From Escherichia phage ES: DNA of 48,315 nt. The position numbers and the translations under genes are program-made. The stretch is taken from the sequence record OR466728.1; one strand, written 5' to 3'. This document shows, one piece after another, positions 26,168 to 48,315 of the stretch; the first letter of the stretch is position 1; the number at the start of each line of letters is the position of its first letter. Below the pieces are notes generated by a model. The model made no database searches and was not told where the DNA came from. It worked only from the letters and a program-made list of their open reading frames with translations.

Positions 26168-26176
26168 TAAAAGATA

Positions 26177-26199
26177 AAGCCCCTTTCGGGGCTTTTTTT
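26177..26199. terminator. bidirectional terminator
   Basis: AAGCCCC/GGGGCTT stem flanked by A-run upstream and T-run downstream, between convergent genes. Confidence 0.6.
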
Positions 26200-28732
26200 A
26201 TGCGAGAGAAACTCTTGAATTTGCAAATATCATGGCATCCCTTTGGTTATCAAACTGCACAACAAAGTAATCAGCAAGACTTAACACCATACCAGTTAGT
26301 CCATCAAGGTTGATATGCAGGTTTGCAGTGCCAGATACTGAAGCCTGAGCAACTCCAAATGTATGAACCCACTTACCGCCCTCAGTGAACACTTTCCCTA
26401 AAGATGCAGTACCAAAAATACTGATAGCACCATCTGCACCACCTTGAATCCTGTTTGCAGAGATACCCCAAACGTACCATTTGCCGGAAGTTATATTAAA
26501 GCCACCATTTATCAATTCGTACTGAGCCGCACCAGCCAATTCGTAGTATCCAGATGATTGCGAGTGTATACCCCTTGTATCAGAACCTTCACTTGCCGAC
26601 CCTGTTCCACCAAAGTTGTTCCCACCAGTACCAAAAGGCCTCCTGACTAAAACAGTTCCGGAATCGGGATTAAAAACTCGACCCTTAGTAACATATCCTC
26701 TAACAGATAAGTCAGATGTACCCGTTATCTTGGCTGTCTGTGATACCAGTGACTCAACTATAACGTTTGATGTTGAAGAGCCATTCAGGTATGCATCCTT
26801 AGCAAAAATAATACTGTTCGAATCAAGAGAGAAACTTTGATGCCCATCAGCGTTATCAAACCTGCAACCGTAAGTAACAAGGTTTGAGTTAGACAACTCA
26901 ATGTTATTAATGTAGGAGTGCTCAGCAAAGAAAACAGACGTATCAATAAGCTTCAAAACCCTTGGTAGCTCAGCACCCTCACCTACGTTAATTGCCCCAC
27001 CAGTCGCTATTGCTTCAAACCATACATTTGACAAACCACAAGGCGAGGTCGGGCAATCTCCAGGTTTATTCTTTAACCTTATACCACCTCCAGCAGAGGC
27101 CTCCATTATTGAATCCCTAATCCACCATCCACCAATCCCTCCAGCACCAGGGTTAGTTGCACTACTTGTGCTTGTCGCATCTAGCATTACTGAATATTGA
27201 GAGATTGTATCTGAGTGGTACCCGTATAAAGTGTCCGCTCCTATATGCATTTCGTCATGAGCTTTGGCTCGATACCCGTAATTCGCATTTCTAATACTTA
27301 CGTTTCTGTAGGTATTTCCAATGTTGCCAGCATTTTTCCTTATACCAACATCCAGGTCATTGAAGTAAAGCCTATCCAATACAACCCTTCCAGCATAAGG
27401 GTCATCCGGGAATTGAAAGCCGTTATTACCTTGTATTGCAGTACCTGTAAACTGCAAATCCGATAAATGCTTTTGCCTCCAGTGCGGAACCGATAGCGTT
27501 GAGGTGAGTCCGGTTTCAAAAGGTTTAACACTTATTACGGTATTATATCCAGAGCCTGATATGTTCCTGCCAGCAAAGGAGTAGTTATTACTCTCATAAG
27601 TTCCCGGGCTTATAACTACCGACCCGCCATCGCCAGCGGCTTCTATTGCTGAAGATATTGAGCCGCTATAGCTTGATGTGCTTTTTGAATCTGTATTTAA
27701 AATTGATGACACCTCACCCTTTGAGTAAACATCAAGGTTGGTTCTTGCCACGGACTTATCTGCAATGTCTGAAAGATTCAATGATTTTTGAAACGTCTCG
27801 GATTTTGAGTAAACATCAAGCAACCCCCTAACCCTTGACGCGCTTGATCCACCAGTTGCAGCATCACCGCCAGGCAAGCTTAGTACTTCCCTTACATAAA
27901 AAACCCTAGATCCAGTCGCACCAGAAATTGTGACATCTGCAATCCTAAAATTTGAGTTTGACCCAGTAGACGGAGATAACCTTAATACTTTAGCCGAATT
28001 AACACCCCTAGTTGCAATAACATCAATACAAATAGGAGTTGTTGAAACCGGAAACATTGAACTAATTTCTTTTGGGGTGTTTAACATATTCCCAGGTGTG
28101 CACTGATAACGACCTCCGGAATAAAATTGCATTGTTTGCCAATCTAAAGAGGTAAGTAATGGCGTTGTCGTGCTACCTATTCCGTGATTAGCAAAGTAAG
28201 CAACAGCCGCTGTATTTCCAGCCGCATTTATTGCTTCAACCGTCCTGTTATATGAATTTTGTGCGTTAGTGCTTGCACCAACTGCGGTCGCTGCACTTTC
28301 AGCAGCAGCAATCTGACTAGCTAACGCCTCCGCAGCTCCGGTAGTTGACTGAGTTGCCAGTTGTTCAAAACGAGGCCAATCAAAAGTATCTTGACCAATA
28401 AATTGCAGTAGACTTTCAATAGAAGTCTCTTTTGACTGGTAGTAACGCAATGTTTCCGCAACATCCTGTGCCAACCCCTGAACAGTAATTCCATCATGAG
28501 CAAGAATTGCGTAACCAGTACCAGCGGGAACAGTTTCAGAACTTGGATTATAAACATTAACCTGAGTATCGCTGATGATTTCAGAGATGGTGTAAATTTT
28601 CAGAGGGCTGGTTTTGAAAATGATAGTAGCACCTACACGAATCAGCGTAAGCGGCGCTTTCCATGTTGTACCGACACCAGTTACCTCTCCATTCGCGGCC
28701 AGTGACGCTGTTCCTAAGTCATAAATTGCCAT
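26198..28732 (-). CDS. tail fibre / tailspike-like protein
   Basis: 844 aa from ATG 28732 (RBS GGAGA; ORF-track start 28762 is GTG); Gly/Ser/Thr/Asn-rich repetitive beta-type composition. Confidence 0.5.
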   Translation of the reverse strand: MAIYDLGTASLAANGEVTGVGTTWKAPLTLIRVGATIIFKTSPLKIYTISEIISDTQVNVYNPSSETVPAGTGYAILAHDGITVQGLAQDVAETLRYYQSKETSIESLLQFIGQDTFDWPRFEQLATQSTTGAAEALASQIAAAESAATAVGASTNAQNSYNRTVEAINAAGNTAAVAYFANHGIGSTTTPLLTSLDWQTMQFYSGGRYQCTPGNMLNTPKEISSMFPVSTTPICIDVIATRGVNSAKVLRLSPSTGSNSNFRIADVTISGATGSRVFYVREVLSLPGGDAATGGSSASRVRGLLDVYSKSETFQKSLNLSDIADKSVARTNLDVYSKGEVSSILNTDSKSTSSYSGSISSAIEAAGDGGSVVISPGTYESNNYSFAGRNISGSGYNTVISVKPFETGLTSTLSVPHWRQKHLSDLQFTGTAIQGNNGFQFPDDPYAGRVVLDRLYFNDLDVGIRKNAGNIGNTYRNVSIRNANYGYRAKAHDEMHIGADTLYGYHSDTISQYSVMLDATSTSSATNPGAGGIGGWWIRDSIMEASAGGGIRLKNKPGDCPTSPCGLSNVWFEAIATGGAINVGEGAELPRVLKLIDTSVFFAEHSYINNIELSNSNLVTYGCRFDNADGHQSFSLDSNSIIFAKDAYLNGSSTSNVIVESLVSQTAKITGTSDLSVRGYVTKGRVFNPDSGTVLVRRPFGTGGNNFGGTGSASEGSDTRGIHSQSSGYYELAGAAQYELINGGFNITSGKWYVWGISANRIQGGADGAISIFGTASLGKVFTEGGKWVHTFGVAQASVSGTANLHINLDGLTGMVLSLADYFVVQFDNQRDAMIFANSRVSLA

Positions 28733-28756
28733 TGTGTAAAGTCTCCATTTGTAAAA

Positions 28757-28774
28757 TAGCACGAATTGCTAAAG
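28757..28774 (+). promoter_or_regulatory. dyad box copy 6, orphan (plus orientation between two minus-strand genes)
   Basis: exact TAGCACGAATTGCTAAAG; no plus-strand gene or good -10 downstream; overlaps 5' leader of the tail fibre gene. Confidence 0.4.
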
Positions 28775-28797
28775 TTGATTGTAGCATCTTTGAGTCA

Positions 28798-28819
28798 TAA
28801 AAAAACCTCCCTTAGGAGG
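28798..28819 (-). terminator. rho-independent terminator (minus strand) after primase
   Basis: CCTCC/GGAGG stem, CTTA loop, 8 A on plus strand (T-run on minus). Confidence 0.55.
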
Positions 28820-29743
28820 TTAGTCTAGCAATTCGCTTGCCTTGTATATTCGCTTTCTTATGCCTGACTTGAAAAAATTATCATCATTTGGCATTACCAC
28901 ATCAAGATCGCGATCGTCAGCAACGGCGAGTAAATCAAAAGCGTGGCGAGTGCAAGCGATGCGTAACTTGTATTTTCTAAGCGCGTAAGCAACCATTTCC
29001 ATGTTGTAGCTGGAGTAGCAAACAATCACGCAGCGGTTGCCAGTAGCAAGATGAACGCGAATACCATCAATCCAATTATCGACAAGATAAGCGTACTCAT
29101 CATCTTTAAGGGAGCCAATAACAGACACTGACTGTCGAGTATAATCTTTTGCAGCATAGCTAACATCTCCTTCCTCATTGATAAACATTACATTGCACAT
29201 TTCTTCTGATATGCCGTCACTATAAGCCATAAAGCACGGGACAGCATGGATTAATTCACCTGATTTTGTTCTACCAACATCAAATCCAAACTCGCTATAA
29301 ATACCCTCGTATGTACTGAGTGGAGTTGATTCTACTCTTTCCGTCCTTTCCATTATCTCCAGGCATCTTTCGTGGTCAATCTGTGCTCCCATTTTGTAGA
29401 GCTGGGCTCTTGATGCTTGCTTGTTTGCCTTGTTAACAACTTCAACCGGGATGAGGTTCAGCCACTCACCTAGAGTGTCAATACATTCACTGAATGACTC
29501 ACCCCGCATCTTCATGACCCAAATAATCCCATCACCTGACCCGCACTGGTTGCAGATAATCCCACCGTCACCATCCTCACTAACCTTGTTTGTCCAGCGA
29601 GCGCGGTCAACTCCTCCACAATAAATACATGGCTTATGCTTTTTTGTCTGGAAGAATTTTGGGTCTGCGCCGCAAATGTTTATAAGCGCCTTATCCCACA
29701 GTCCGCGCATTCTTGGTAAAACTTCTTTCTTGTCGTAGTGCAT
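28820..29743 (-). CDS. DNA primase (zinc-ribbon type, putative)
   Basis: 307 aa; N-terminal CIYCGG...CNQCG zinc-binding motif; adjacent to helicase region. Confidence 0.55.
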   Translation of the reverse strand: MHYDKKEVLPRMRGLWDKALINICGADPKFFQTKKHKPCIYCGGVDRARWTNKVSEDGDGGIICNQCGSGDGIIWVMKMRGESFSECIDTLGEWLNLIPVEVVNKANKQASRAQLYKMGAQIDHERCLEIMERTERVESTPLSTYEGIYSEFGFDVGRTKSGELIHAVPCFMAYSDGISEEMCNVMFINEEGDVSYAAKDYTRQSVSVIGSLKDDEYAYLVDNWIDGIRVHLATGNRCVIVCYSSYNMEMVAYALRKYKLRIACTRHAFDLLAVADDRDLDVVMPNDDNFFKSGIRKRIYKASELLD

Positions 29744-29764
29744 ATCAATCTACCTCTTAACAAA

Positions 29765-29795
29765 TAAAAAAGGATGTACCGATTATGGCACATCC
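29765..29795 (-). terminator. hairpin plus T-run (minus strand) after HTH gene
   Basis: GGATGT/ACATCC stem with 12-nt loop, 6 A on plus strand (T-run on minus). Confidence 0.35.
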
Positions 29796-29801
29796 AATCC
29801 T

Positions 29802-30275
29802 TTACTCTTTAGCTTTTCGTGCTGCTTCGTTAGCGGCCTTAATCTTGCGCCATGATCGACACTCTGGCTTGGTGGCTAGCTCTGCTTCAGTAACTACGCG
29901 AAGCATATGACGCTTCTTACATCGAAGTGTTAGCGGCTTACCGTTTCCGTCGAATTGCAGGTCTGGTCGGCAGAACGTAGCTCGAAATCCTTCCTTATTT
30001 CTCTTATACGCATTGTGAGCTTTCTGCGCTCCTCGAGCCGAAATCATCCCGCGATCAAACCATTGCTCTACAGTCTGGTGAGATACGTTTAACTGCTTTG
30101 CGATGTTCGCCTTTGTTCCATAGAAATCAAGAACCATCTCCAGGCGAGCACGTAGCCCAGCCTTTACCTCATCTTTCAATACGTAGTAGCCTGACGGTCG
30201 TTTGCGTTGCTTCTTGTCTTGTGTGCGTACCGTTCCGTTATTGCCGTTAATAGTTCGTTTGTCAATTTCACACAT
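29802..30275 (-). CDS. HTH DNA-binding protein (candidate transcription regulator)
   Basis: 157 aa, basic, HTH-like GTKANIAKQLNVSHQTVEQWFDRG; RBS GAGG; a dyad box overlaps its 5' region. Confidence 0.5.
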   Translation of the reverse strand: MCEIDKRTINGNNGTVRTQDKKQRKRPSGYYVLKDEVKAGLRARLEMVLDFYGTKANIAKQLNVSHQTVEQWFDRGMISARGAQKAHNAYKRNKEGFRATFCRPDLQFDGNGKPLTLRCKKRHMLRVVTEAELATKPECRSWRKIKAANEAARKAKE

Positions 30276-30288
30276 CTCATTACCTCAA

Positions 30289-30306
30289 TAGCACTTTTTG
30301 TTAAAC
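30289..30306 (+). promoter_or_regulatory. dyad box copy 7 (TAGCACTTTTTGTTAAAC) in divergent region
   Basis: TATTAT about 21-22 nt downstream; helicase ATG 83 nt downstream; 14 nt from the ATG of the divergent HTH gene. Confidence 0.5.
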
Positions 30307-30371
30307 AATAGGTTCGATAATTGATATTATACAGCAATGCAACGAACTAACAAACTGTCAGGATACTTAAA

Positions 30372-33300
30372 ATGCTTCCAGTAGAGCGCTTAGTGGCAAA
30401 CTTTGATCAAGAGAAAATCAAACAGATTCAGAAAGATTACCAGTTTGGAGACATAACTCCTTACGAATTCCAGTGTGTAACATTTGACGCAATTGGTAAG
30501 GCTATTGGTAAGTACGAGGCTCCATTCATCGCAGACCTGTCTGTATCTGCTGGTAAAACAATAATTCTTGCCATGATTGGGAAAAGAATGGAGCAACTTG
30601 GACTTCCTTATATGGTACTGTCTCGCCAGTCAGAGATTATCAGCCAGAACGCAGAGGAACTCCGTAACTTCGGTATCCGTAATAGCGTCTATTGCGCTGG
30701 ACTTAACGTTAAATCAGTTTACTACCCAACCATAGTGGCTAGTGAGGGTACAGCTGCCAATGGCCTGTTTAAGGGGCTTGGTGACTATGTTCCTGCTGTT
30801 ATCGCGATAGATGAGTGCTTAACTGGAGACACGATGATAACCACCGATTCAGGGATGATGAGGATTGATAGCGAAGACCTTATCAATCATAAAATAAAAT
30901 GCATAAACGAAAGCACTGGTGATTACTTCTATCATAAGCCAAAAAGAGTTTTTACTAATGGTGTAAGACATGTATCATCAATTAAATTAGAAAGCGGAGA
31001 GGAAATAAAATGCACGAGTACACACAAACTTTATTCGAACGGCTGCTGGGTAGGAGCGGGAAAACTTCGTATTGGGATGAATCTGTCGCTAGACGGCTCG
31101 CAGGACAAATTTACGAAAAAGCTCCTGCGTGCAAGTGTGGCTGTGGTGAAAAAGTTATGCCGCATTCAAGCAAGGGGTTAGGCGTACTTCTTAAGAACCC
31201 TTTCGATTTCTATTTGGATTACAGAACGGGGCATCATAATTCAACCGTCAACCCATCAATGGAGGTTGATGACTTTTTACATCAAAACATTCTTGCGGCA
31301 ATGGCTGGTGATGGTTGCTTGATTAAAAATACAGAAAAAGGAACGCATAGGCTATCTTGGAATATGGGAAATAAGGAGCACGCACTAAGCAAGGTTGAAA
31401 GGTTTGCAAAACTAAACCCTAGATACAGGGAGAAGAAAAACCCTGGATTTGGCGACAACTGGTTTTGCGTATCAACATCATGTACGAAAGTTCTGGATTC
31501 ATATGCTGATAAGTACGGAAATTCTAAGGATGGTTACGATATTGGAAAGATATGCAGAGAGCTTGATCCAGTTGGTTGGGCTGCTTACTTTGGTGATGAT
31601 GGTCATTGCACTGTAAGCTCAGGGAAGAGGGTTGTAGAAATCCACACCGAATCATTTAGCAGGCGTGAAGTTCAATCAGTAGTTGATGCGCTAATAGCAT
31701 TTATTGCTAATGACGGAGTTAATGTTAGAAGCTATATTGGCGGCAAGAAAAAGAGAGAGCTTTACTCAGTATCAATAACAACGAGGTCGGCACAAGATGA
31801 GTTTTTTAAGAGAATTAGTAAGCACATGGAAAATGGCGTGGAATACAAAATCAAGCAAAATTAAAGACATCTCACCCATTGGCAAGGAACTTGTTTGGGA
31901 TATAGAGATGCCTGAGCACCATAATTTCATTGCTGACGGGGTCGTGGCACATAATTGCCACATGGTGGACCATATGGATATCGTAGAAGCTGAAGAGAAT
32001 GAGGAAACATTCGAGCAGATGAGCACGAAGAAGGGTGAGATGGTCTTTAAGGATGGTGTGAATACCGGGCTTCTTGGCACTGGTCGCGCGCAATACACGT
32101 TAATCATTACCGAAATGAAGCGTCGATGCAAGGAGAAGTACGGTCGCGAACTTCGTATCTTTGGGTTAACTGGTAGCCCGTACCGTAACAACGACCACAT
32201 TGTAGTTAGTAACCCAAATGTCCGTGGATTCTGGCGCAAAACTGTAATGCAAGTGCCAACCAGCTACCTTGTTGACTTGGGGTTCGTTGTTCCTACTGTC
32301 TACGGTGAAGTTGGTGATTTGGGCTACGACCTTAGTGAGTTCACTCCTGATGGAAGTGATGGGGTTAAGGACTTCAGCAAGAAAGAAATGGATGCGATGG
32401 CTGCAAAGATTCACGAAAACCAAACGATGACACAAAAGATAATGGGATTTGCTGCTAGGTTTATGGAAACAAGGAATGCTGCATTGGTAACTTGCGCTGG
32501 CAAACAGCATTGCGAGGAGGCGGCAGCCGCACTTCCAGAAGGTGTTACTTGGGCGATAGTTACCAACTCCACTGGTGATAAGAAGCGTAGAGAGATACTT
32601 GAGAAGGCAGCCAGCGGAGAATATAAGTTCATATTTCAGATTGGTTGCCTCACAACTGGCGTAAACTGCCCCCCGTGGGATACAAGCATTATCCTGAGGA
32701 AGGTTGGTAGCATTACTCTACTCATTCAGTTGCTTGGTCGTGGTATGCGTATCCTTAAGAAGAAGCACAAAGAAGCTGGAATGGTAAAAGATGACCATGT
32801 TGTTCTTGATTTTGCCGGGACGCTTGACGATATGGCAGAACTCTACTTCGACCCAATTATAGAAGAGGTTCAGGACCAGAAGTTTAAGTCATCCAGGAAA
32901 GGGGGTGATGAACCAAGAATTTGCCCAGCATGTTCTTATGAGAATTCTCCTTTCGCACGGCGCTGTAATAATGTGATTGACGGTAAACGATGCGAGCATT
33001 TTTTTCAGTTCCGTCTTTGCGAAGATATTGAGGACCCGCAGACGAAAGTTATCGTTAAGAAAGGTTGCGGAGAGAAAAATGACGTTGCAGCAAAGAACTG
33101 CCGCTGCTGCGGAGAGATGCTGATAGACCCAAATGCAAAGCTATCTGGAAAAATGTATCGGAAAGGGGACTGGTTGAGAGTTTATGACTTCAAGATTGGG
33201 TTGACAAAAAACCAGTCAGGGATCGTTGCTTCATATGAGGTAATGGCTCATAGTGGAGATAAGTTCCGAGCTTATGAAACATTCTTCCCGGAGTCAGACC

Positions 33301-33506
33301 ATCGTGTTTGTTCTGTCAAATGGAAGGCGTTTTGCTCAACTCACATCGAGAACAGGACTGAGGCTTTTAGGATTGGCAGATTGCGTAATGCTAAAATGAT
33401 TATGACAAATGCACATCTTTTCCGTGCGCCGCTAAGGATTACGCACCGCAAGAATCAGAAGTCGCAAGATATTATCGCCAACAAATCATTTACGATGGAG
33501 GATTGA
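30372..33506 (+). CDS. SF2 DExH-box DNA helicase, interrupted by an intein (exteins 30372-30815 and 31956-33506)
   Basis: Walker A SVSAGKT; motif II DE|CH restored on excision; three track ORFs (30372, 31010, 31797) belong to one gene. Confidence 0.75.
30816..31955 (+). mobile_element. intein with LAGLIDADG homing-endonuclease domain (1140 nt, 380 codons)
   Basis: starts CLTGDTMI, block B TSTHKL, LAGLIDADG-like ILAAMAGDGCL and AAYFGDDGHC, ends NFIADGVVAHN before +1 Cys; endonuclease domain is in a different frame. Confidence 0.8.
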
Positions 33507-33507
33507 T

Positions 33508-33927
33508 ATGAAAATCACAGACAAAGGTGATTACCTCGAGTTCTATGGCGGACCGGTGAAGTCATGCCCAAAGGAAGACGATGAACAAATCTTCTGCTCT
33601 GATTGGGTGAAATACAACTATCCGCAGATTGTTTACTGGCACACGATTAACGAAAATAAAAAGAGCATTGGTCAAGCAATAAAAGACCAAGCCAAGGGGC
33701 TTCTCAAAGGTGTGTCAGACTGCTTATTTCTGATACCTGAGTCATTGCGTGGCGGTTATCCATTTGGCGCCATAGAGTTAAAGAGGGCTGGTAAAACGCA
33801 AGCAAGCCCAGTTAGCAATGAGCAAAAGTCATTCCTAAAAAGCGTAAGGGAATCAGGCGGTTTCGCAGCGGTGGCTTATGGAAGAGAGGGTTTTCTTGCG
33901 GCATTCGCAGAGATGATAAGAAAATAG
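33508..33927 (+). CDS. VRR-NUC-like nuclease (putative)
   Basis: 139 aa; ...D...IELKRAGK... PD-(D/E)XK-like core; RBS GGAGG. Confidence 0.45.
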   Translation: MKITDKGDYLEFYGGPVKSCPKEDDEQIFCSDWVKYNYPQIVYWHTINENKKSIGQAIKDQAKGLLKGVSDCLFLIPESLRGGYPFGAIELKRAGKTQASPVSNEQKSFLKSVRESGGFAAVAYGREGFLAAFAEMIRK

Positions 33928-33942
33928 CACGAATTGCTAAAG
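33925..33942 (+). promoter_or_regulatory. dyad box copy 8 (TAGCACGAATTGCTAAAG)
   Basis: TAG is the stop of 33508-33927; TATTAT 22 nt downstream, then CATCGAAAC; ATG of 34006 is 81 nt downstream. Confidence 0.55.
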
Positions 33943-34005
33943 ACGAATTGGTGAGTTGGTGTATTATCAACTCATCGAAACGAAACAAAGAGAGAGATAA
34001 ATAAA

Positions 34006-34194
34006 ATGAAAGACATTATTACTAAAGAATCCCAAAGCTACTACGCCTCATACTATGAGACAGTTAATGGTTTTAAATTTATTGATATAGAGCAAGGTGG
34101 AAACGCCGTTACGCTAACTAGCGAAAAAGATTTAAATGACATGATTTCGTTCTTAGAAAAAGTGAAAGAGCATTTAAATAGCACGAATTGCTAA
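34006..34194 (+). CDS. hypothetical protein (C-terminus NSTNC)
   Basis: 62 aa, RBS AAAGAGAGAGA; last five codons are encoded by the next dyad box. Confidence 0.5.
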   Translation: MKDIITKESQSYYASYYETVNGFKFIDIEQGGNAVTLTSEKDLNDMISFLEKVKEHLNSTNC

Positions 34195-34196
34195 AG
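34179..34196 (+). promoter_or_regulatory. dyad box copy 9 (TAGCACGAATTGCTAAAG)
   Basis: lies inside the 3' end of 34006-34194; TATAGT 22 nt downstream, CATCGAAAC; ATG of 34256 is 77 nt downstream. Confidence 0.55.
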
Positions 34197-34255
34197 AGAT
34201 TTCGCAGGGACGCGATATAGTTACTCCATCGAAACAAAACGCAGAGAGAAAGAAA

Positions 34256-34444
34256 ATGGCTACTATCTATACTGGTAAATTCTACGAATCACGCAAGACT
34301 GGTTACGAATATGAATTAGTAATTACAGATGACGGTTATGCTCTTGATGATGGTGAAGGATACGCATTTGAAGTTAGCCCAACTTACAAATATGATCTGG
34401 AAACTGTTAAAAACGAATTCGGCGAAAAATTTGATGAGGTATAA
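34256..34444 (+). CDS. hypothetical protein
   Basis: 62-aa ORF, RBS AGAGAGAAAG. Confidence 0.5.
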   Translation: MATIYTGKFYESRKTGYEYELVITDDGYALDDGEGYAFEVSPTYKYDLETVKNEFGEKFDEV

Positions 34445-34449
34445 GAGTA

Positions 34450-34671
34450 ATGGCAATTTTAACATTTGACAAACAATGGGAACTATTTCAGGCAATGGGG
34501 GTTCAGGAGCTACACAATGCTGGTTATAAAGGTAACTCATGGTTTTTAGCAGGATGCCTTGATTACAGCTTTGAAGAAGATTACTTGCGAACGGACATCG
34601 AAACATGGCGCGAACGCATGGTTGCAGACATTGCGGAAATGAAAAAAGATTGCCCGGAGGATTTTGAATAA
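34450..34671 (+). CDS. hypothetical protein
   Basis: 73-aa ORF, RBS GAGG. Confidence 0.5.
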   Translation: MAILTFDKQWELFQAMGVQELHNAGYKGNSWFLAGCLDYSFEEDYLRTDIETWRERMVADIAEMKKDCPEDFE

Positions 34672-34796
34672 TGAAAATCTTAGATAAGGAGATGTTCGAA
34701 ATTGCACAGACTTATGCAAATGAAGCAGTTAAAACCGGATCAGAATATTGTTGGATGTGTGCTAAAGAATATCTGAAAATGGCTTATGACTTATGA
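34671..34796 (+). CDS. hypothetical small protein
   Basis: 41-aa ORF below the track cut-off, tightly packed in the operon. Confidence 0.35.
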   Translation: MKILDKEMFEIAQTYANEAVKTGSEYCWMCAKEYLKMAYDL

Positions 34797-35041
34797 TAGT
34801 TGAAACCGGACGCGCCGCAGTTTGGGCGCATTGCGGAGAGGCGGGATTGCAGGATGACATCAAGAAAATATCTAAATACTTCGATATTCAAGAAATCAGC
34901 GTTGTCTACGGCGGTAAGTTTTCATATATACAAGATCGTCCAAGGAAATATGTAAGAGTTAAACCAGGTGCCAGGATTGATGTTAACGAGTTCCTTAAAT
35001 CTGAGGGATTCAAGTTTAAGATAACGAAGCATAAGGATTAA
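34793..35041 (+). CDS. hypothetical protein
   Basis: 82-aa ORF, ATGA overlap with upstream stop. Confidence 0.45.
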   Translation: MIVETGRAAVWAHCGEAGLQDDIKKISKYFDIQEISVVYGGKFSYIQDRPRKYVRVKPGARIDVNEFLKSEGFKFKITKHKD

Positions 35042-35043
35042 TC

Positions 35044-35190
35044 ATGAAGCCACACGAATATTCAGCATTGGTTAACGGGTTACTTGAGGTTTCTATAAAA
35101 TTCAAGGATACGCAGCAGTTAAGGGAGCAGCTATCACGAGAACTCTCAAGGCATGGTATTAGACCGAGTCATAAGATGGAAAAGGATTGA
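35044..35190 (+). CDS. hypothetical small protein
   Basis: 48-aa ORF below the track cut-off, fills the gap between flanking genes. Confidence 0.3.
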   Translation: MKPHEYSALVNGLLEVSIKFKDTQQLREQLSRELSRHGIRPSHKMEKD

Positions 35191-35192
35191 GC

Positions 35193-35444
35193 ATGTTGGG
35201 TTTAGATTTTCAGCCGGAGCATTACGATTTAGTATATGGTCAAAGTGGTGCGAAGTTTAGAGCGATACCTATTTCTGACTGGTTTCCTCCTGACTACGTG
35301 GATGTTAATGCGAAGACGAAGGATGGTAAATGGGTACAGATTTACTATTCCCCAGCGTGCGGGAATCTCTGCATGACAGACCTGGACCAGAAATTAGAAA
35401 TTAGTGCAGATTTAATTGATTACTGGTTGAAAGAGGTTGTATGA
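35193..35444 (+). CDS. hypothetical protein
   Basis: 83 aa from ATG 35193, RBS AAGGA. Confidence 0.45.
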   Translation: MLGLDFQPEHYDLVYGQSGAKFRAIPISDWFPPDYVDVNAKTKDGKWVQIYYSPACGNLCMTDLDQKLEISADLIDYWLKEVV

Positions 35445-35515
35445 AGTACACAGCCCTAGTAGCATTAGTACCACTGTTTAGCTTTACTATCTTATATTTT
35501 ATTGTGATGAACTAA
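35441..35515 (+). CDS. hydrophobic micro-peptide (24 aa, putative membrane)
   Basis: MKYTALVALVPLFSFTILYFIVMN; RBS AAGAGG 5 nt upstream; ATGA overlap with upstream stop. Confidence 0.3.
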   Translation: MKYTALVALVPLFSFTILYFIVMN

Positions 35516-35525
35516 GGACTTAAAA

Positions 35526-36659
35526 ATGGCAGCATCAAAGATTACAAATGAACAGCTTATCGAAGAGCTGAAAAGCGGCCTGACTAACAAGGCAATTGCA
35601 GAGAAGTACGGCATGAATATTCGCAACGTTGAGCTTCGTCGCAGTAAGTTGGCTAAGAGTGGTATTGGGCATGGTAATGAAGGTATCAAGAAGCTAGTTC
35701 CTGACGGTTATTTAGTCAAGGGCACCTCAACAATGATTGATGCGGAAGGGAATGAGAAGCTGCGTTGGGTTAAGACTTCGATTGATGCTGAGAAGCAAGA
35801 AGAGATGCTTCAGCAGATTGTTAAGGCTCTTACAGACGAGGTTCCTCGCGAGACTCCAAAGCCACTCAGTGAATCAAGCTATGAAGATACATTGAGTCTC
35901 TACCCTGTATTTGATATGCACATTGGCGCAATGGCTCACCATGCAGAGTGTGGGGAGAACTACAGTACAGAAATTGCAGAGCGAGTGCTTAACCAATACT
36001 TTGATTATGCAGTTGCTAAGGCCCCGAATTCATCAAAAGCCGTATTACTGATTGGTGGAGACTTCCTTCACTCGGATGGAATGGAAGCTGTAACTCCAAC
36101 CAGCAAGCACGTACTTGATCAAGATAGCCGTTATCATAAACTTGTCTACGTAGCTGTTCGTGCAACTCGCCGCGCCGTCAGTAAGATGCTTGACAAGCAT
36201 AAAGAGGTTGAGGTTCAGATTATACCAGGCAACCACGACCTTTCTGGGATGATTTGGCTTCGAGCTGCAATGGCTGCCTTCTACATGGATGAGCCTCGTG
36301 TAAATGTTGATGCCTCACCAGCCGCTCTTCACGTGACGGAGTTTGGTAAAACATTGTTGGGTTACTGCCATGGTCATGAATTGCGAAAGCCTGACACTCG
36401 TCTTTCAACTCTTGCGCGCGACCATCGCAAAGCATTTGGTAATGCTGAATACGTTTATACACATAGTGGCCATTATCATCATCAGACGGTTACTGAGGGT
36501 AATCTTGGAATTGATGAGTCACACGGTCAGTTGGGTGCTAAAGATGCGTACAGCGCAAACGGAGGGTATCGCTCTTATCGTCAGGCCTCAGTAATTATCT
36601 ATAGCTCAGAGTACGGTGAAGTTGGTCGATTCACTTGCCGACCTGAAATGTTTAAGTAA
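35526..36659 (+). CDS. calcineurin-like metallophosphoesterase with N-terminal HTH domain
   Basis: phosphoesterase motifs DMHIG, GGDFLHSD, PGNHD; N-terminal HTH-like LTNKAIAEKYGMNIRNV. Confidence 0.55.
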   Translation: MAASKITNEQLIEELKSGLTNKAIAEKYGMNIRNVELRRSKLAKSGIGHGNEGIKKLVPDGYLVKGTSTMIDAEGNEKLRWVKTSIDAEKQEEMLQQIVKALTDEVPRETPKPLSESSYEDTLSLYPVFDMHIGAMAHHAECGENYSTEIAERVLNQYFDYAVAKAPNSSKAVLLIGGDFLHSDGMEAVTPTSKHVLDQDSRYHKLVYVAVRATRRAVSKMLDKHKEVEVQIIPGNHDLSGMIWLRAAMAAFYMDEPRVNVDASPAALHVTEFGKTLLGYCHGHELRKPDTRLSTLARDHRKAFGNAEYVYTHSGHYHHQTVTEGNLGIDESHGQLGAKDAYSANGGYRSYRQASVIIYSSEYGEVGRFTCRPEMFK

Positions 36660-36677
36660 TAGCACTTTTTGTTAATA
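36660..36677 (+). promoter_or_regulatory. dyad box copy 10 (TAGCACTTTTTGTTAATA)
   Basis: immediately after the TAA stop of 35526-36659; ATG of 36733 is 73 nt downstream; -10 weak (CAAAAT). Confidence 0.4.
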
Positions 36678-36732
36678 AAGCCTCAAAGGATTGAGGCAAA
36701 ATGAATAAACGATAACGATATGAGGAGTTGTA

Positions 36733-37206
36733 ATGATTTACGTGTTTGATATTGATGGAACTGTTGCTAACAATGAACATAGAAGCCACCTCTTACCATC
36801 TAGTGACCTTCACTTGACTTCAAGTTGGAGTGATTACAATAGAGCCTGTTCTGGAGATTCACCGATAATCCCAATGATAAACATGATGAATGCGTTAGCT
36901 GAGTTATCGCCAGTTTACATCATGACTTCAAGAAGTGACGAAGTCGAATGTATGACGCTTGAATGGCTTCAGTATAATAATATTAATTATGATGGAATAT
37001 ATATGAGGAGTAGATTGGATAACAGAAATGACTATATCATTAAAGAGATGTGGCTAAATGATTTGTGTAATGGTGACAAAGCAAGTGTGATAATCTTTGA
37101 GGATAATCCTAATGTTATCAGTCACCTAAGGAATTGCGGATATACTGTAATGTCAGTTTGTGAATATAAAGAATTACCAAAAGACTGCGAATCTCACGGA
37201 GAATAA
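36733..37206 (+). CDS. HAD-superfamily phosphatase (polynucleotide 3'-phosphatase-like)
   Basis: motif I VFDIDGTV at N-terminus; 157 aa; RBS GAGGAG. Confidence 0.55.
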   Translation: MIYVFDIDGTVANNEHRSHLLPSSDLHLTSSWSDYNRACSGDSPIIPMINMMNALAELSPVYIMTSRSDEVECMTLEWLQYNNINYDGIYMRSRLDNRNDYIIKEMWLNDLCNGDKASVIIFEDNPNVISHLRNCGYTVMSVCEYKELPKDCESHGE

Positions 37207-37207
37207 A

Positions 37208-37762
37208 ATGAAAAAGTTAATCATCCTTAATGCACCCCCTGGTGCTGGAAAAGATACAGTTGCAGATATCATTGTTAATCTTGGAATTTGCAAGGATAAG
37301 GTTTCATTCAAGTCACCAATGTTTAATGTTGCAAAAGGAATACTATCAAGTGATGAGTTTGATGGATTTATTAATAATTACGATGACCGAGAGTACAAAG
37401 AATCACCACACGAATTTCTTGGTGGAATGACTGTTCGTGAATTTATGATTTGGATTAGCGAATCAGTTATGAAGCCAGTCTTTGGTGATGATGTTTTCGG
37501 CAAAAGGCTCACACAATCACTTGGTGATGGATGCTACATTTGTTCAGACGGTGGATTTGCGAGTGAAATCGAACCACTGATTGGCAACGGCGTTGAGGTT
37601 ACATTGATTAGGCTTCACAGGCCTGGTTATACTTTCGAAGGAGATAGTAGGTCATACCTTAGTTGCGTCTGCGCAAGAGAGATTGATGTTGATGTTATTG
37701 AAGGTGATATTAAAAGAACTACAGAAAAAGTAATTAGTGCAATCAATAGCACGAATTGCTAA
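37208..37762 (+). CDS. P-loop kinase (nucleotide or polynucleotide kinase-like)
   Basis: Walker A LNAPPGAGKDT at residues 6-16; 184 aa from ATG 37208 (RBS GGAG); ends NSTNC inside a dyad box. Confidence 0.55.
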   Translation: MKKLIILNAPPGAGKDTVADIIVNLGICKDKVSFKSPMFNVAKGILSSDEFDGFINNYDDREYKESPHEFLGGMTVREFMIWISESVMKPVFGDDVFGKRLTQSLGDGCYICSDGGFASEIEPLIGNGVEVTLIRLHRPGYTFEGDSRSYLSCVCAREIDVDVIEGDIKRTTEKVISAINSTNC

Positions 37763-37764
37763 AC
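37747..37764 (+). promoter_or_regulatory. dyad box copy 11 (TAGCACGAATTGCTAAAC)
   Basis: overlaps the last codons of 37208-37762; AATAAT about 23 nt downstream, CATCGAAAAC; ATG of 37821 is 74 nt downstream. Confidence 0.5.
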
Positions 37765-37820
37765 AATCACCTTAGAGATGCGGAATAATCAACACATCGA
37801 AAACAAGAGAGGATTCAAAA

Positions 37821-37994
37821 ATGACTAAATTATACTGCGTTAAAAACAACTCCAAGACACTGCCTTTTACCGAGAGCCAACCTTATAGCGGAGAGTCGCT
37901 TGGAGATGGTTACTACAAGATTTACGGAGACGATATGACTCACATCCTTGCGCCGATTGATGGCTCTTTGGTGGAATTTATTATCGCAGATTAA
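37821..37994 (+). CDS. hypothetical small protein
   Basis: 57-aa ORF, RBS AAGAGAGG, followed by strong terminator. Confidence 0.4.
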   Translation: MTKLYCVKNNSKTLPFTESQPYSGESLGDGYYKIYGDDMTHILAPIDGSLVEFIIAD

Positions 37995-38021
37995 CACATC
38001 AAAAACATAGATTTGCATGCG

Positions 38022-38047
38022 GGGGGCCTTTTGGCTCCCTTTTTTTT
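38022..38047 (+). terminator. rho-independent terminator
   Basis: 7-bp stem GGGGGCC/GGCTCCC with one wobble, TTTT loop, 8 T. Confidence 0.55.
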
Positions 38048-38121
38048 GCTTATAATTTGCCACCGCCTAATGTATGATATTTGCACTATGTATTGACAAA
38101 TTAGGATTTAAAGGTGATCAC

Positions 38122-38337
38122 ATGAGGGAAGTAATTAACGCCGCCACGGCATCAACCGGCGGAGCCGCTGTAACTGGTGCCGCAACTGGTCAAATGACTA
38201 TAGCAATAATCAGCCTTGTGGCTCTTGTTGTTTTCGGGCTGTGGGGAGCATATTGGAAGTTTAAGGACAGTCAGGCAATCAGGAAGGCTCTAGAGTCGGG
38301 TGATTTAAAGACAGCTATCAATATTAGGAGTAAGTAA
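38122..38337 (+). CDS. holin (putative)
   Basis: 71 aa from ATG 38122 (RBS AGGTGA); one hydrophobic TMD IAIISLVALVVFGLWGAYW and charged C-terminus; directly upstream of endolysin. Confidence 0.55.
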   Translation: MREVINAATASTGGAAVTGAATGQMTIAIISLVALVVFGLWGAYWKFKDSQAIRKALESGDLKTAINIRSK

Positions 38338-38822
38338 TGAAGCAGAAGCTGGTAATTAGTGCAGCGACGGCTGTGGCAATATACATCGCAGCGCCGATTA
38401 TTGAGCTAGTAGAAGGTGTGGAATACAAGCCTTACATGGACATTGCAGGCATTCCTACGGTTTGTTCAGGTATCACTGGTCCTGATGTGGTGTGGGGTAA
38501 AAAGTACAGTGCAAGGGAGTGCAGGAACTTACTGGAGAAACACATCCAGATTCATGGAAAGTATGTGCAGGATGCAGTAACTTACCCAATCTCTCCACAG
38601 ACAAGGGCGGCGTTAATCAGCTTTAGCTACAACGTTGGTGGCGCTGCAATGAGGAAGTCAACGGCAGTAAGGCTGATTAATCAGGGCAAGATTGAAGAGG
38701 GTTGTAATGCTCTCGCCTCCTGGAATAAAGCTCGAGTAAATGGCAAGCTAAAAGTTGTTAAAGGCCTCGTTAACAGGCGCAACGAGGAGATTAAATTATG
38801 CTTAAGTGGGGTGGGTAAATGA
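38337..38822 (+). CDS. SAR endolysin (T4-lysozyme-like)
   Basis: N-terminal weakly hydrophobic signal-anchor-release segment, then E-x8-D-x5-T catalytic triad (ELVEGVEYKPYMDIAGIPT). Confidence 0.75.
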   Translation: MKQKLVISAATAVAIYIAAPIIELVEGVEYKPYMDIAGIPTVCSGITGPDVVWGKKYSARECRNLLEKHIQIHGKYVQDAVTYPISPQTRAALISFSYNVGGAAMRKSTAVRLINQGKIEEGCNALASWNKARVNGKLKVVKGLVNRRNEEIKLCLSGVGK

Positions 38823-39205
38823 AGGCTGCGTTAATTGCTGCGGTAATTATACTTTCTGGTTGCTCGGCAACATCTGCGCTGACCGGGTTGATTGGTAGTA
38901 AGCCAGAGATTAGCGCTCAAGCAGGTGCGGAGAATAACAAGGTTGGAGTAGGGCTAACTAATAAGGTTGATTCAAGTTCCAGCGCAAAGGCTGAAGTGAA
39001 GAACTCTAAGGTTGACACTCTTGATAGTTCAAGCGGTAAAAAGACTTCTGATAACTCAATCAAGGCATCAACAATCACGGCTGAGAAGATTGAAATCACC
39101 AACAATGACTCGTCTGCAATCCCGTGGATTGGGAGTGGAATCATGTTTTGCGTCATCATCATTCTGCTCTTAATGATATTCAGGAAAAACAAAAAAGCCC
39201 CGTAA
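38819..39205 (+). CDS. unimolecular spanin (T1 gp11-like)
   Basis: N-terminal lipoprotein signal with lipobox ILSGC and C-terminal TMD GIMFCVIIILLLMIF in one 128-aa protein. Confidence 0.65.
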   Translation: MKAALIAAVIILSGCSATSALTGLIGSKPEISAQAGAENNKVGVGLTNKVDSSSSAKAEVKNSKVDTLDSSSGKKTSDNSIKASTITAEKIEITNNDSSAIPWIGSGIMFCVIIILLLMIFRKNKKAP

Positions 39206-39218
39206 TGGGGCTATTTTT
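39196..39218. terminator. bidirectional terminator between lysis cassette and minus-strand block
   Basis: AGCCCC/GGGGCT stem, A-run upstream and T-run downstream. Confidence 0.55.
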
Positions 39219-39552
39219 ATGCAAACAATTCGTCATCACTCATGTTGGCTATGTTCATCATCTCACTGACGTAATCACTGGACCTACCTTCAAGGCTCAT
39301 GAATTCAAACTGAAATGGTCGCTTAATTGAACCCTTACACCAGTACACTCCATTAACTCCATCAAGATAACCAGCCGTAAGCATTCTCGCCATAAACTCC
39401 TTCGAGCAACTTGAGGCAAAATACCTTTCATCAACCCCGGCAGCCTTGGCCATCCTTGCGCAATCCTTGTGCTTATAGATGAATCTTGCCAGGTGCTGGC
39501 GGTTGAAGTTCTTGTATCCTTCGCAGAAATTATACAGGTCGAGCAGGTACAT
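39217..39552 (-). CDS. hypothetical protein
   Basis: 111-aa ORF, overlaps the upstream minus-strand gene. Confidence 0.45.
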   Translation of the reverse strand: MYLLDLYNFCEGYKNFNRQHLARFIYKHKDCARMAKAAGVDERYFASSCSKEFMARMLTAGYLDGVNGVYWCKGSIKRPFQFEFMSLEGRSSDYVSEMMNIANMSDDELFA

Positions 39553-39555
39553 AAA

Positions 39556-41139
39556 TTACCCCAGCAATCGTGGATTAATGTAAATTTTATCACCAATCAG
39601 GCATGTGTAGTTTTTCTCATCAAGCATAGGAATCAAGTGGTCCTTAATGCGAGTCATAATTCCAGCCTGAGCTTCAAAAGGTTTAACCTTGCGTGCAGCC
39701 TCATACAACGAGCGAACACCAACAACACCTTTACCATTCTTGCCCTGCTTAATCAGGATATCAACCAGCTTGTTCATCTCGGCATTGTCACCAGCATGAC
39801 CAGCAGCACTAGCTGATGACAAATACGTCTTGCTTAGCTCGTTGAAAATCATAACTGCCTCCTGCATTGTCTCCAGTTCAATCTCTCTGGACTTCTGCGG
39901 GCTAGAGCCAGTTTGTGAGGACCAGTTACGAATAACGTGAAGTACGGAAGCGATGCGGATTGCTTGCTTATCAAACTTACCAAGAGCACCGCGCAACATT
40001 GTGTGAGAATACTTGCCACCATCACCAAGATGAGGCTCCATCTCCTGACGTGCTCGGTTAAGGTAACGCATTGATGATGCGCTTACTGTTAGCTTAACCT
40101 CTACTTCATTCATAATCTCATGAACAAGACGGAAGTAGTCCGCTTTCAGGCCGCCATCAATAGCCTCGTATGTTGAATCACCATTAGCATCAACAAATAC
40201 GCGGTCGCCAAGGAATGACTTTTCGCGCACCAGAAGGAAACGCTCAGATACACCAATACCACGCGCACCAGCATTCATAATGGCATTGATTGTTTCATCC
40301 TGAGCAATTACGGAGATGCATCCCATAGCCACAAAGCTCATGTTATTTTCTGCGTTCGCACGGGCAATTGACACATTACCTGCATCCCATGCTTTCAGCA
40401 CGAGCTCGCTGTTCGTTTTCTTAGAGCCATCACCATATGTCATACCCAACAATGAGTTGACGCTAGTTGCCTCATCCGAGATTACCGAGAAGTTACCCTG
40501 GCGGTTGTTGATTCGCGCAAGGCCTTCTGGTGTAGTATCGGAGACAGGGAATACGATATCGCACAGCTTCTCAAGTTTTTCCTCCAGGTCTTCTTTATCT
40601 TCAAACAATGAAGCCATTTCAGAAGGTGATTTCTCCTGCTTCATCTCTTTAGCCAGGGCGGACAGTTTAGCCATAATCTTTTTTCGATCACGTTTACGTA
40701 CTTCATTCAACCGCTCAGTCTCAGCAATCATTGGCGCGATTGCCAGTGAGTTAATGGCTGACTTACCAGTTGAAGGAGGCTGGCTCGTCACGACATAAAG
40801 AGATGTCGGCTGCTGGGTTCCGTGATACTCAACAGTGAAGCGCCCAAGCATTGCAGCGGACACGCAGCCCAGAAAGTGCATATAAGCAGATGACTCAGGG
40901 AACTGAACTGAGCGAGCGATGTTGGCTGACAGCTTGCCAACAATATCAATGTCATTACCGAGTGAGATTACTGGATATTTGTAATTCCCAGCATCAATCT
41001 CGACAGGTGCTTTCCAGAATGATTGAGACTGGCGATAACCATTTGCATTAATTGCTACGCGAAGTGGTGGAAGGTTGTCTGTAGCTGCAATTGCCATAAC
41101 TTGTTCAACAGATAGTTTATCTTCGTTGAAATCAAACAT
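39556..41139 (-). CDS. P-loop ATPase, replication-associated (putative)
   Basis: 527 aa; Walker-A-like VTSQPPSTGKSA; own promoter box upstream. Confidence 0.35.
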   Translation of the reverse strand: MFDFNEDKLSVEQVMAIAATDNLPPLRVAINANGYRQSQSFWKAPVEIDAGNYKYPVISLGNDIDIVGKLSANIARSVQFPESSAYMHFLGCVSAAMLGRFTVEYHGTQQPTSLYVVTSQPPSTGKSAINSLAIAPMIAETERLNEVRKRDRKKIMAKLSALAKEMKQEKSPSEMASLFEDKEDLEEKLEKLCDIVFPVSDTTPEGLARINNRQGNFSVISDEATSVNSLLGMTYGDGSKKTNSELVLKAWDAGNVSIARANAENNMSFVAMGCISVIAQDETINAIMNAGARGIGVSERFLLVREKSFLGDRVFVDANGDSTYEAIDGGLKADYFRLVHEIMNEVEVKLTVSASSMRYLNRARQEMEPHLGDGGKYSHTMLRGALGKFDKQAIRIASVLHVIRNWSSQTGSSPQKSREIELETMQEAVMIFNELSKTYLSSASAAGHAGDNAEMNKLVDILIKQGKNGKGVVGVRSLYEAARKVKPFEAQAGIMTRIKDHLIPMLDEKNYTCLIGDKIYINPRLLG

Positions 41140-47290: not shown

Positions 47291-47487
47291 TGAATAAAAT
47301 TATTAAGAAAGGCGATGCTATCAAGTGCACAAAGGCAGTATCGGATGACTTCATGGATGGATGCGATTACCAGGTCGAAAAGGTATCGAAGACTGGCCAC
47401 GTATTCTGCTACAGCGATAATGGCGAATTGGTGAGCATTGACTACCCGTATGACCAGAATTATGGGAAATTCGAAAGAGTAAGTTGA
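47287..47487 (+). CDS. hypothetical protein
   Basis: 66-aa ORF, ATGA overlap with upstream stop. Confidence 0.4.
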   Translation: MMNKIIKKGDAIKCTKAVSDDFMDGCDYQVEKVSKTGHVFCYSDNGELVSIDYPYDQNYGKFERVS

Positions 47488-47675
47488 CACATCTAACCCT
47501 GACTGGTACATTAACAACTGTAGACAGACGAGGCCACCAAGTGGCAACGGCGCACGGAGCGCAACACAAAGTCCATAGCTCACTAAGCAGCGTATATGGC
47601 GAAATCGGTCGAGAAACTCGACGCTGGAAGCGTAACCAGCAATCCTTCAATAGCGCAATCGCTACTCAAGGATTT

Positions 47676-47751
47676 GTTCTGCTGGCGTAACAGGATAACG
47701 CAAAGACCTCCTAAGTCTTAGTTACTGGTTCGAGTCCAGTGCGGAACACCA
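47676..47751 (+). tRNA. tRNA-Arg (anticodon CCT)
   Basis: hand-folded cloverleaf: 7-bp acceptor GTTCTGC/GCGGAAC, D-arm GCGT/ACGC with GG loop, anticodon loop CTCCTAA, T-arm ACTGG-TTCGAGT-CCAGT, discriminator A, encoded CCA. Confidence 0.8.
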
Positions 47752-47782
47752 AATTAAGAAACCAATAATCCTGGGGGATTAA

Positions 47783-47995
47783 ATGAAAAAAGTAACAATC
47801 ATCGTAAAAGATATTGAAAGCGGCACTTCCCAAAAATTCAACGCAACACTTGACCGTGAACATAAATGCTTAAAGGGTGTGATTGGCGGGGTTTCAGTTA
47901 GCGCGGATATTAAAGGTTATCTCGAGCTTGAAAGAGAAATTCAAAACTATAGCAATCAGAGCGGGAAGATAAAAAATGCAGCTCTGGGATGTTAA
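47783..47995 (+). CDS. hypothetical protein
   Basis: 70-aa ORF, RBS GGGGGA; last gene before the junction with position 1. Confidence 0.45.
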   Translation: MKKVTIIVKDIESGTSQKFNATLDREHKCLKGVIGGVSVSADIKGYLELEREIQNYSNQSGKIKNAALGC

Positions 47996-48004
47996 GCTTT
48001 CAAT

Positions 48005-48160
48005 CTGCTTCCTCTGAGGACTTAGCAGTAACCGACGCGATAAATTCTTGAGTGCAACTTTTGCAACTACGACCCATTAATCGGATTGAAAGCTTAACAT
48101 CCCAGAGCTGCATTTTTTATCTTCCCGCTCTGATTGCTATAGTTTTGAATTTCTCTTTCA
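48005..48160. other. 156-nt fold-back: reverse complement of the end-to-start junction (probable assembly artefact)
   Basis: 48005-48082 is the exact reverse complement of 1-78; 48083-48160 is the reverse complement of 47929-48004 plus CC. Confidence 0.7.

Positions 48161-48315
<155 letters not shown>

Follow-up and report, generated by a model that had tools for sequence, protein, structure and literature searches.

In Escherichia phage ES, analysed here as a single stretch of 48,315 nucleotides (sequence record OR466728.1; hereafter the window), the gene for a 76-nt tRNA-Arg(CCU) with an encoded CCA lies at 47676-47751 on the + strand. The upstream open reading frame (ORF) stops at 47487, which leaves 188 nt (47488-47675) before the tRNA, and within this gap a structured non-coding leader RNA of 156 nt is predicted at 47520-47675 (+) from conserved DNA and covariance models, both of its ends being placed by prediction. 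Behind the tRNA come two small ORFs, an intrinsic terminator and terS. The locus very probably combines a new structured RNA with a codon-compensating tRNA, and strong comparative support from the sequences identifies the leader as a real and previously undescribed RNA family. Literature searches turned up no RNA described at the leader's position in T1-like phages, and most public records leave the leader without annotation.

Promoter, hairpins and covariation of the leader RNA

A sigma-70 promoter occupies 47484-47512 (+; 10/12 matches). It consists of TTGACA, a 17-nt spacer and TACATT, with the TG of an extended -10 at 47504-47505; its -35 hexamer and the stop codon of the preceding ORF overlap, and this promoter is the sole site in the window that unites a perfect -35, a 17-nt spacer and TG. 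All relatives have a promoter at the equivalent place, and from the -10 hexamer to the conserved GUARAC the distance is exactly 7 nt. Because of the promoter and this constant gap in every clade, the transcript is predicted to start at G 47520 (pppGUAGAC...). In phage T1 the promoter in front of the element is TTGACC-18-TAGTAT.

The 156-nt RNA folds into six hairpins (H1-H6), better than its shuffles do (z = -2.8), and the two covariance models built for it, R1 and R2, match 47520-47601 and 47603-47651, respectively. Among the 5' domains of 20 Braunvirinae 99.1% of cells are paired, and among 17 3' domains 91.7%; in neither alignment did any of 500 shuffles equal the observed covariation, and register-shifted controls brought pairing down to 15-45% in both. 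Compensatory changes keep five of the six hairpins paired in relatives, H3, H4 and H5 among them. Stem length in the conserved hairpins is 4-6 bp, the loops measure 3, 5, 8, 3 and 8 nt, and the hairpins stand in a row with no four-way junction. The RNA is assigned to the + strand because U.G pairs, which would be mismatches on the opposite strand, are frequent in H3 and H4. A single all-clade MAFFT alignment misaligned the 5' half, and helices were instead compared across the family by per-sequence extraction.

H1 (GCCAC-CAA-GUGGC, 47533-47545; this and all following hairpins on the + strand) shows both-sided changes at 4/5 pairs, and its stem occurs family-wide in seven versions (GCCAC, CUAGC, CCAUC, ACCAC, GCUC, GCUCC and ACGG), with GCGC in T1. 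H2 (GCGC-ACGGA-GCGC, 47550-47562) lies immediately 3' of a conserved AACG joiner; it is invariant in Braunvirinae and covaries across the family in at least six stem versions, among them GCAUC/GAUGC, GCGGC/GCCGC, GCAGC/GCUGC, GCCAG/CUGGC and, in T1, GUGAGA/UCUCAC. H3 (47573-47599), with an outer stem CCAU/AUGG, an inner stem GCU/AGC and the loop CACUAAGC, is found only in Braunvirinae and is missing from T1 and Tempevirinae; its outer stem varies as CCAU/AUGG, CCGU/ACGG, CCGU/GCGG (with a U.G pair) and CCGC/GCGG. H4 (GUCGAG-AAA-CUCGAC, 47608-47622) has a variable loop on a covarying stem, with both-sided changes at 3/5 pairs (GGUCG/CGACC, GGCUG/CAGCC, GAGC/GCUC, AGGC/GCCU). Joined to it without a linker, H5 (GCUGG-AAGCGUAA-CCAGC, 47623-47640) has six stem versions (GCUGG, CCCGG, GCCGG, CCCGC, GCGGG and CGG) under a loop that ends in [C/G]GUAA and reads A..[CG]GUAA in 38/38 leaders, T1 included. 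H6 (AAUCCUU...UAGCG-CAAU-CGCUA...AAGGAUU, 47641-47674) closes the leader as a clade-specific hairpin, with 1 nt between it and the tRNA; it is found in the window, TR2 and IMM-001, and a second version with a different inner stem (CUAG/CUAG) in MM01, IME542 and ACG-M12. Two of these structures had already been picked out correctly by a first-pass annotation made from the letters alone: its stem-loop GTCGAG-AAA-CTCGAC is H4, and its palindrome TAGCG-CAAT-CGCTA is the inner stem of H6 (47651-47664).

The string [C/G]GUAA occurs 72 times in the 38 leaders against 13 expected by chance, a count inflated by shared ancestry. Outside H5 it is seen in H2 of Nouzillyvirus (UUCGUAAU), in a GAGG-AUAAGGCGUAAA-CCUC module and at the H1/AACG junction of a divergent clade, and the same string forms positions 34-38 of the anticodon loops of tRNA-Thr(CGU/GGU). 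Two further pairings were considered and rejected: a long-range AAGUCC/GGGACU pairing, for which OzMSK and FP have AAGCCC with the partner unchanged, and a GUAG/CUAC helix closing around H1-H2, which is missing in the window's own clade.

The first-pass annotation had also seen no convincing ORF upstream of the tRNA, and on this point it was right. The 68-aa ORF at 47484-47690 is open in this phage alone, being interrupted by stop codons or frameshifts in IMM-001 (95.6% identical DNA), TR2, MM01, EC3a and Rtp; the variable columns of the leader fall 15/18/10 by codon position, with no third-position bias, and the insertions of 30-200 nt between clades are not multiples of three. Its suggestion that the region might encode a small RNA or a degenerate second tRNA survives in part, as covariation supports a structured RNA, whereas neither ARAGORN nor RF00005 (permissive filters, E<=10) gives a tRNA signal in 47488-47675 and the hairpins form no cloverleaf. 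Nor do the Rfam 15 covariance models match the leader in the window (E<=10) or in 10 relatives from five clades (E<=1); permissive searches of the window and these relatives returned nothing but the tRNA and look-alikes of terminators. It is therefore very improbable that the leader is a decayed second tRNA or a short protein gene, even though the 68-aa ORF is open here and some relatives have an extra tRNA-like sequence near the tRNA-Arg. A few records annotate short hypothetical proteins over the leader (IMM-001, ESCO41 gp18, HCF1 and related phages), and in IMM-001 the ORF is even labelled '30S ribosomal protein S4'; such annotations have almost certainly mistaken non-coding RNA for genes.

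Spread through Drexlerviridae and the tRNA gene

The leader DNA is conserved in 96 phage records, and all subgroups of Drexlerviridae that were sampled have the element in one constant position. The region of the window is 100% identical to that of Escherichia phage AN_ECEAS (Drexlerviridae, Braunvirinae). In T1 (NC_005833) the element occupies 7625-7740, an unannotated gap between ST58 and ST57, and is detected by both R1 and R2, while a divergent clade of 47-48-kb phages follows this plan but builds it from other stems. A minimal form, about 115-125 nt long and without a tRNA, occurs in Citrobacter phage HCF1, Tlsvirus (Stevie), Motto, PaulSarasin, KLB26 and PMBT35, phages whose terS genes are more distant. 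Its order is GUAAAC, AAGAG, H1, AACG, H2, a linker, AAUCGG, a variable H4 and H5 (...CCGUAA loop), and its tail CAUUCA leads straight into the ribosome-binding site of the small ORF; ARAGORN confirms that T1, Stevie and the HCF1-like locus L041 have no tRNA here. The first-pass annotation had described this stretch as a leader of the tRNA. It is not simply that, for the element is family-wide and independent, and T1 and many other relatives have it although no tRNA follows.

In Braunvirinae, Nouzillyvirus and the divergent clade, the tRNA-Arg sits between the leader tail and the ribosome-binding site. Because T1 and its relatives carry the leader at the same position without a tRNA, the comparison of sequences indicates that the tRNA is a secondary insertion between an older leader and the ORFs. 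The RNA of the tRNA-bearing lineages has grown: H3, H6 and additional modules bring it from about 115 nt to 155-360 nt, and no leader longer than 360 nt was seen. The H4-H5 unit is tandemly duplicated in JulesPiccard (L004 1729-1869) and in a metagenome locus (L069 3193-3310, -), where the loop of the second copy is AAUCAUAA rather than AGCCGUAA.

The number of tRNAs behind the leader is 0, 1 or 2 across the family, so that the site behaves like a landing pad for tRNA genes. In an IMG/VR genome (UViG_2974508417; L043 5885-6039, -) a tRNA-Trp(CCA) lies directly upstream of the tRNA-Arg(CCU), both behind the leader. Just 3' of the tRNA-Arg, EC3a (L028 ~4745-4860) and ESCO41 (L037 1158-1217) have a degenerate tRNA-like sequence with a T-arm (GCAGGTTCGATTCCTGC) and an ACCA end, which in ESCO41 scores 26 bits, below threshold, and is not called by ARAGORN; this could be a second tRNA that is being lost, or else a tRNA-like RNA of an unusual type.

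A host or plasmid origin of the leader was rejected, since nothing was found in 5,426 E. coli genomes and a search of plasmids gave just two 27-nt matches, by chance. A 20-base H1-H2 pattern gave 17 hits in unrelated metagenome-assembled genomes (GTDB genomes), none with the 3' domain and all taken as chance, and in an initial 16-mer scan of viral contigs 12/18 matches were by chance.

There is nothing unusual about the tRNA itself, and annotations of it already exist for many relatives. The only tRNA that ARAGORN calls in the whole 48-kb window is the tRNA-Arg with anticodon CCT and encoded CCA that the first-pass annotation had placed at 47676-47751 (+), and RF00005 scores it at 58.9 bits against a gathering score of 29, covering model positions 1-71. 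Numbered by hand, the sequence has regular acceptor, D, anticodon and T stems and an encoded 3' CCA, with the D-loop AACAGGAUA carrying A20, the anticodon C34-C35-U36 and the discriminator A73 before CCA. The identity elements of E. coli ArgRS are A20, C35, U36/G36 and A/G73, and by this hand numbering all are present.

The codon usage that the first-pass annotation had proposed to compare proved strikingly skewed. AGG is among the rarest codons of E. coli, at a background value of about 1-2 per 1000. Counted over ORFs of at least 120 aa, AGG makes up 14.8 per 1000 codons in the window and 31.5% of its Arg codons, compared with 5.0 per 1000 in T1, which lacks the tRNA. Close relatives have the anticodon UCU in place of CCU, and relatives with UCU use AGA at 8.5-12.8 per 1000 (larger samples). 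UCU is the anticodon in Rtp and Bas01-03, CCU that in AN_ECEAS and TR2. Codon compensation explains the tRNA well, because AGG is the phage's commonest Arg codon and is so much more frequent than in T1; an additional role against tRNA-cleaving defences is possible. The tRNA thus illustrates cleanly how a phage's codon usage and its tRNA can evolve in concert, and the skew has consequences both for attempts to express genes of these phages and for the engineering of therapeutic phages from this family.

The downstream unit and possible functions of the leader

The leader stands invariably at the head of a unit before packaging and structural genes, and the layout is the same in every clade: promoter, leader, 0-2 tRNAs, 2-3 small ORFs and a strong intrinsic terminator, with terS and the structural genes 3' of the unit on the same strand. 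In the window the first ORF (47783-47995, +) encodes 70 aa and belongs to phrog_16862; its Shine-Dalgarno sequence is held in a hairpin, AAUCC-UGGG-GGAUU (47767-47780), that is also seen in Rtp, JulesPiccard and OzMSK. The second, a Cys-containing 62-aa ORF of phrog_2919 that begins MQLWDVKLSIRLMGRSCKSC..., runs from 47976 to 48005 and continues at 1-158 (+). A phrog_2919 homologue lies behind the leader in every clade (ST56 in T1, for example), and in T1 the element precedes three small ORFs as their 5' leader, with a strong terminator closing the series immediately ahead of the terminase genes. Pfam and PHROGs assign no function to the small ORFs. An intrinsic terminator (GCCCUC-UUCUU-GAGGGC plus U7, 212-228, +) ends the unit 55 nt before terS (283-807, +), which is followed by an HNH homing endonuclease ORF (875-1351) and terL. 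The endonuclease is so annotated in AN_ECEAS, and Rtp and RobRod40 likewise have an HNH-type ORF immediately 3' of terS.

The window is a circularly permuted AN_ECEAS genome, and the match runs up to 48005. Beyond this point comes a snap-back copy (48006-48160) in which window 1-78 and then 47929-48005 are repeated as reverse complements, producing a perfect inverted repeat of 77 nt, and 48161-48315 is poly-G. The end of the window (48006-48315) is an assembly artefact; the true continuation of 48005 is one missing base and then window position 1. The snap-back hairpin accounts for weak Rfam 'microRNA' matches at the window end, and the ORF at 48000-48113 (-) is the real 62-aa ORF in backward reading.

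Strong terminators are a recurrent feature of the late region. Besides the one before terS, which has equivalents in Rtp, Stevie, Motto, MM01, EC3a and T1 (in every clade a strong terminator lies 0.45-0.75 kb 3' of the leader), there are others between the late genes, so that at least eight are found among the + strand late genes of the window, all on the coding strand (212-228, 3337-3355, 8892-8907, 11538-11555, 12552-12571, 15949-15967, 18072-18094 and 21541-21558). The T1 record, in which this pattern is annotated as well, has eleven from terS to the end of the tail genes, plus one before terS. For phage TLS, a re-annotation counted 21 terminators but no more than three intergenic sigma-70 promoters, and it identified neither an RNA polymerase nor a sigma factor encoded by the phage (PMC11447400).

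These features could be joined in the following way. One strong sigma-70 promoter would drive a single transcript that comprises the leader, the tRNA-Arg(CCU) and the two small ORFs and ends at 212-228. RNase P would presumably cut at 47675/47676, freeing the leader and maturing the tRNA, which would then supply AGG decoding. The leader might act co-transcriptionally on the polymerase that is making it, as the put RNA of phage HK022 does, and the polymerase so modified would read through the pre-terS terminator and the further intrinsic terminators of the structural genes. RNA from putL begins at or near the +1 of its promoter, and put action survives the loss of its tether to the polymerase (PMC9378689). 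A put-like action is favoured for the leader because of its +1 position and the terminator-rich late region. Moreover, the leader tolerates 0, 1 or 2 tRNAs that would be excised before the downstream genes, which speaks against roles that need a covalent linkage to the mRNA, such as those of a stabiliser or a translational operator; a put-like, tether-independent action still fits. Judged by analogy, such an action on RNA polymerase is possible rather than probable; the account as a whole, identity and mechanism taken jointly, is the best explanation I can offer and stays somewhat short of an even chance. That all T1-like phages, T1 included, should carry a self-sufficient RNA antiterminator unrelated to put and made from the +1 of a constitutive promoter must be called unlikely.

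Several observations weigh against a put-like action. The start site, the release by RNase P and the effect on termination are all inferred, and R1 and R2 find nothing in the early region of HK022 (22000-40751), so that no relation to put is detected. A promoter scan of the whole genome performs no better than shuffles, which means that a scarcity of promoters is not something it can judge. Promoter-like sites lie right after or near the pre-terS terminator, and the late genes of T1 have been described as separate promoter-terminator modules (PMC11447400); if so, read-through may not be needed. A terminator directly 3' of the leader is hard to explain under constant antitermination, and a free trans-acting RNA would account better for the added modules and the duplicated H4-H5.

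Such an RNA is the closest competitor. The leader would be a stable small RNA, abundant from its strong promoter, whose repeated hairpin loops bind or titrate some factor of host or phage; it would be released here by RNase P and, in relatives lacking the tRNA, by an endonuclease cut in the single-stranded CAUUCA tail. It might be a sponge for a protein, or a decoy that imitates the 3' half of ANN-decoding anticodon loops (N-G-U-A-A) against a tRNA-directed nuclease. An adjacent tRNA guarantees a defined 3' end, H6 closes that end 1 nt before the cut, hairpin modules have been added and H4-H5 duplicated in tRNA-bearing lineages, and the AUUC(A) tail after H5 is kept even where no ribosome-binding site follows. 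The excess of [C/G]GUAA, which arises partly in non-homologous loops, points the same way, although shared ancestry raises the count, and the stable RNAs of the T4 tRNA cluster offer a parallel. T1 and the other members without a tRNA, however, have no obvious 3'-end former, and their leader would stay a 5' UTR. The decoy variant suffers from H5 loops of 8-10 nt rather than the 7 nt of an anticodon loop and from a position 33 that is not U, and the 5,426 E. coli genomes hold no similar sequence to imitate. A stable trans-acting RNA is on balance doubtful, and with low confidence I favour an action on the polymerase over it, the free RNA being almost as likely.

The remaining possibilities have less to recommend them. 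Stable hairpins near a triphosphate 5' end protect E. coli mRNAs, and the ancestral arrangement is that of a 5' UTR ending about 10 nt before a ribosome-binding site; the leader might accordingly be a passive 5' structure that protects against decay, aids the folding or processing of the pre-tRNA, or serves as a translational operator of the first small ORF. Yet its loops and joiners (AACG, AAUCGG, [CG]GUAA) are conserved across subfamilies beyond the needs of a stabiliser, RNase P would detach it from the mRNA, and so deprive it of any stabilising or regulatory effect on the ORFs, in just those phages where it is conserved and even expanded together with a tRNA, and it can give no aid to tRNA processing in phages that have no tRNA. 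A passive structure is improbable for these reasons. Far less credible still is a conserved DNA site, such as pac, an origin or a protein-binding array, in place of an RNA. Some pac phages keep pac near terS, which lies less than 1 kb from the element, and the element contains several inverted repeats, but its many U.G pairs correspond to A.C mismatches when read from the opposite strand, and duplex DNA would have no use for them. Furthermore, conservation starts exactly at the predicted transcript start, and in T1 the terminal repeat, and hence the start of packaging, lies at 1-2800, 4.8 kb from the element at 7625-7740.

The control of transcription in T1-like phages is an open question, and the TLS paper lists basic gaps (PMC11447400). 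If the put-like action is real, host polymerase loaded with the RNA would pass some ten intrinsic terminators of the packaging, head and tail genes, the expression of late genes by phages that encode neither an RNA polymerase nor a sigma factor nor any known antiterminator protein would be explained, and the highly transcribed spot behind the RNA would later have become a landing pad for tRNAs. An RNA that modifies polymerase would be a second, independent case of RNA-only antitermination; a free RNA would be a new phage small RNA, modular and expandable. Because T1, Rtp and several members of the BASEL collection are among the carriers, the matter is directly testable in standard E. coli systems.

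Comparison with known systems

The tRNA resembles the codon-compensating tRNAs of other phages (e.g. T4 and T5) in serving a codon that the host seldom uses and the phage uses very often, but the skew here is extreme, AGG being the commonest Arg codon. The leader, as an RNA signal before terminator-containing units, recalls the Nus-dependent signals (rrn, lambda boxA/boxB). The Rtp-type UGCUCAUUAAGUA (5' strand and loop of H3) matches the rrn boxA consensus UGCUCUUUAACAA at 10/13 positions; the window manages only 7/12, and the GCU of this stretch is base-paired in H3. The boxA core GCUCUUUA is not conserved, the window having GCUCACUA, TR2 GCUAAUUA and OzMSK GUUCAUUA. A boxA mechanism was rejected as the function of the family, as H3 is clade-specific, partly paired, and absent from T1 and Tempevirinae, which bear the element. 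A CsrA sponge, suggested by the GGA in the H2 loop ACGGA, was likewise set aside: the window leader has three GGA, near chance, and the H2 loop reads GCGUA in DTL, GCGAUA in Tempevirinae and CGAU in T1. On the same grounds a guanidine-II (mini-ykkC) look-alike, considered for the ACGG loop, was dropped.

The stable RNAs of T4 (species 1 and 2, rnaC/rnaD) are made in a tRNA gene cluster and have their ends set by tRNA-processing enzymes. They share with the leader the character of structured non-tRNA RNAs that are co-transcribed with phage tRNAs, and the gene arrangement of the leader is compatible with a T4-type release from a tRNA precursor. Unlike them, the leader predates the tRNA, exists without it, and always lies at the +1 of a promoter.

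The putL and putR elements of HK022 have about 70 nt, with two long stem-loops, a triplex and sequences that resemble each other (PMC9378689), against 115-360 nt, at least four short hairpins and variable inserts in the leader, and they occur in two copies in a temperate lambdoid phage, whereas the virulent T1-like phages carry one copy of the leader. Antitermination is proven for put, which binds the zinc-binding domain of beta-prime and needs no protein factors to suppress termination; for the leader it is a proposal. In the absence of any similarity of sequence or model the leader is not a member of the put family, but each is a structured RNA just 3' of a host-type phage promoter and upstream of a terminator-containing operon, and put is its closest functional analogue.

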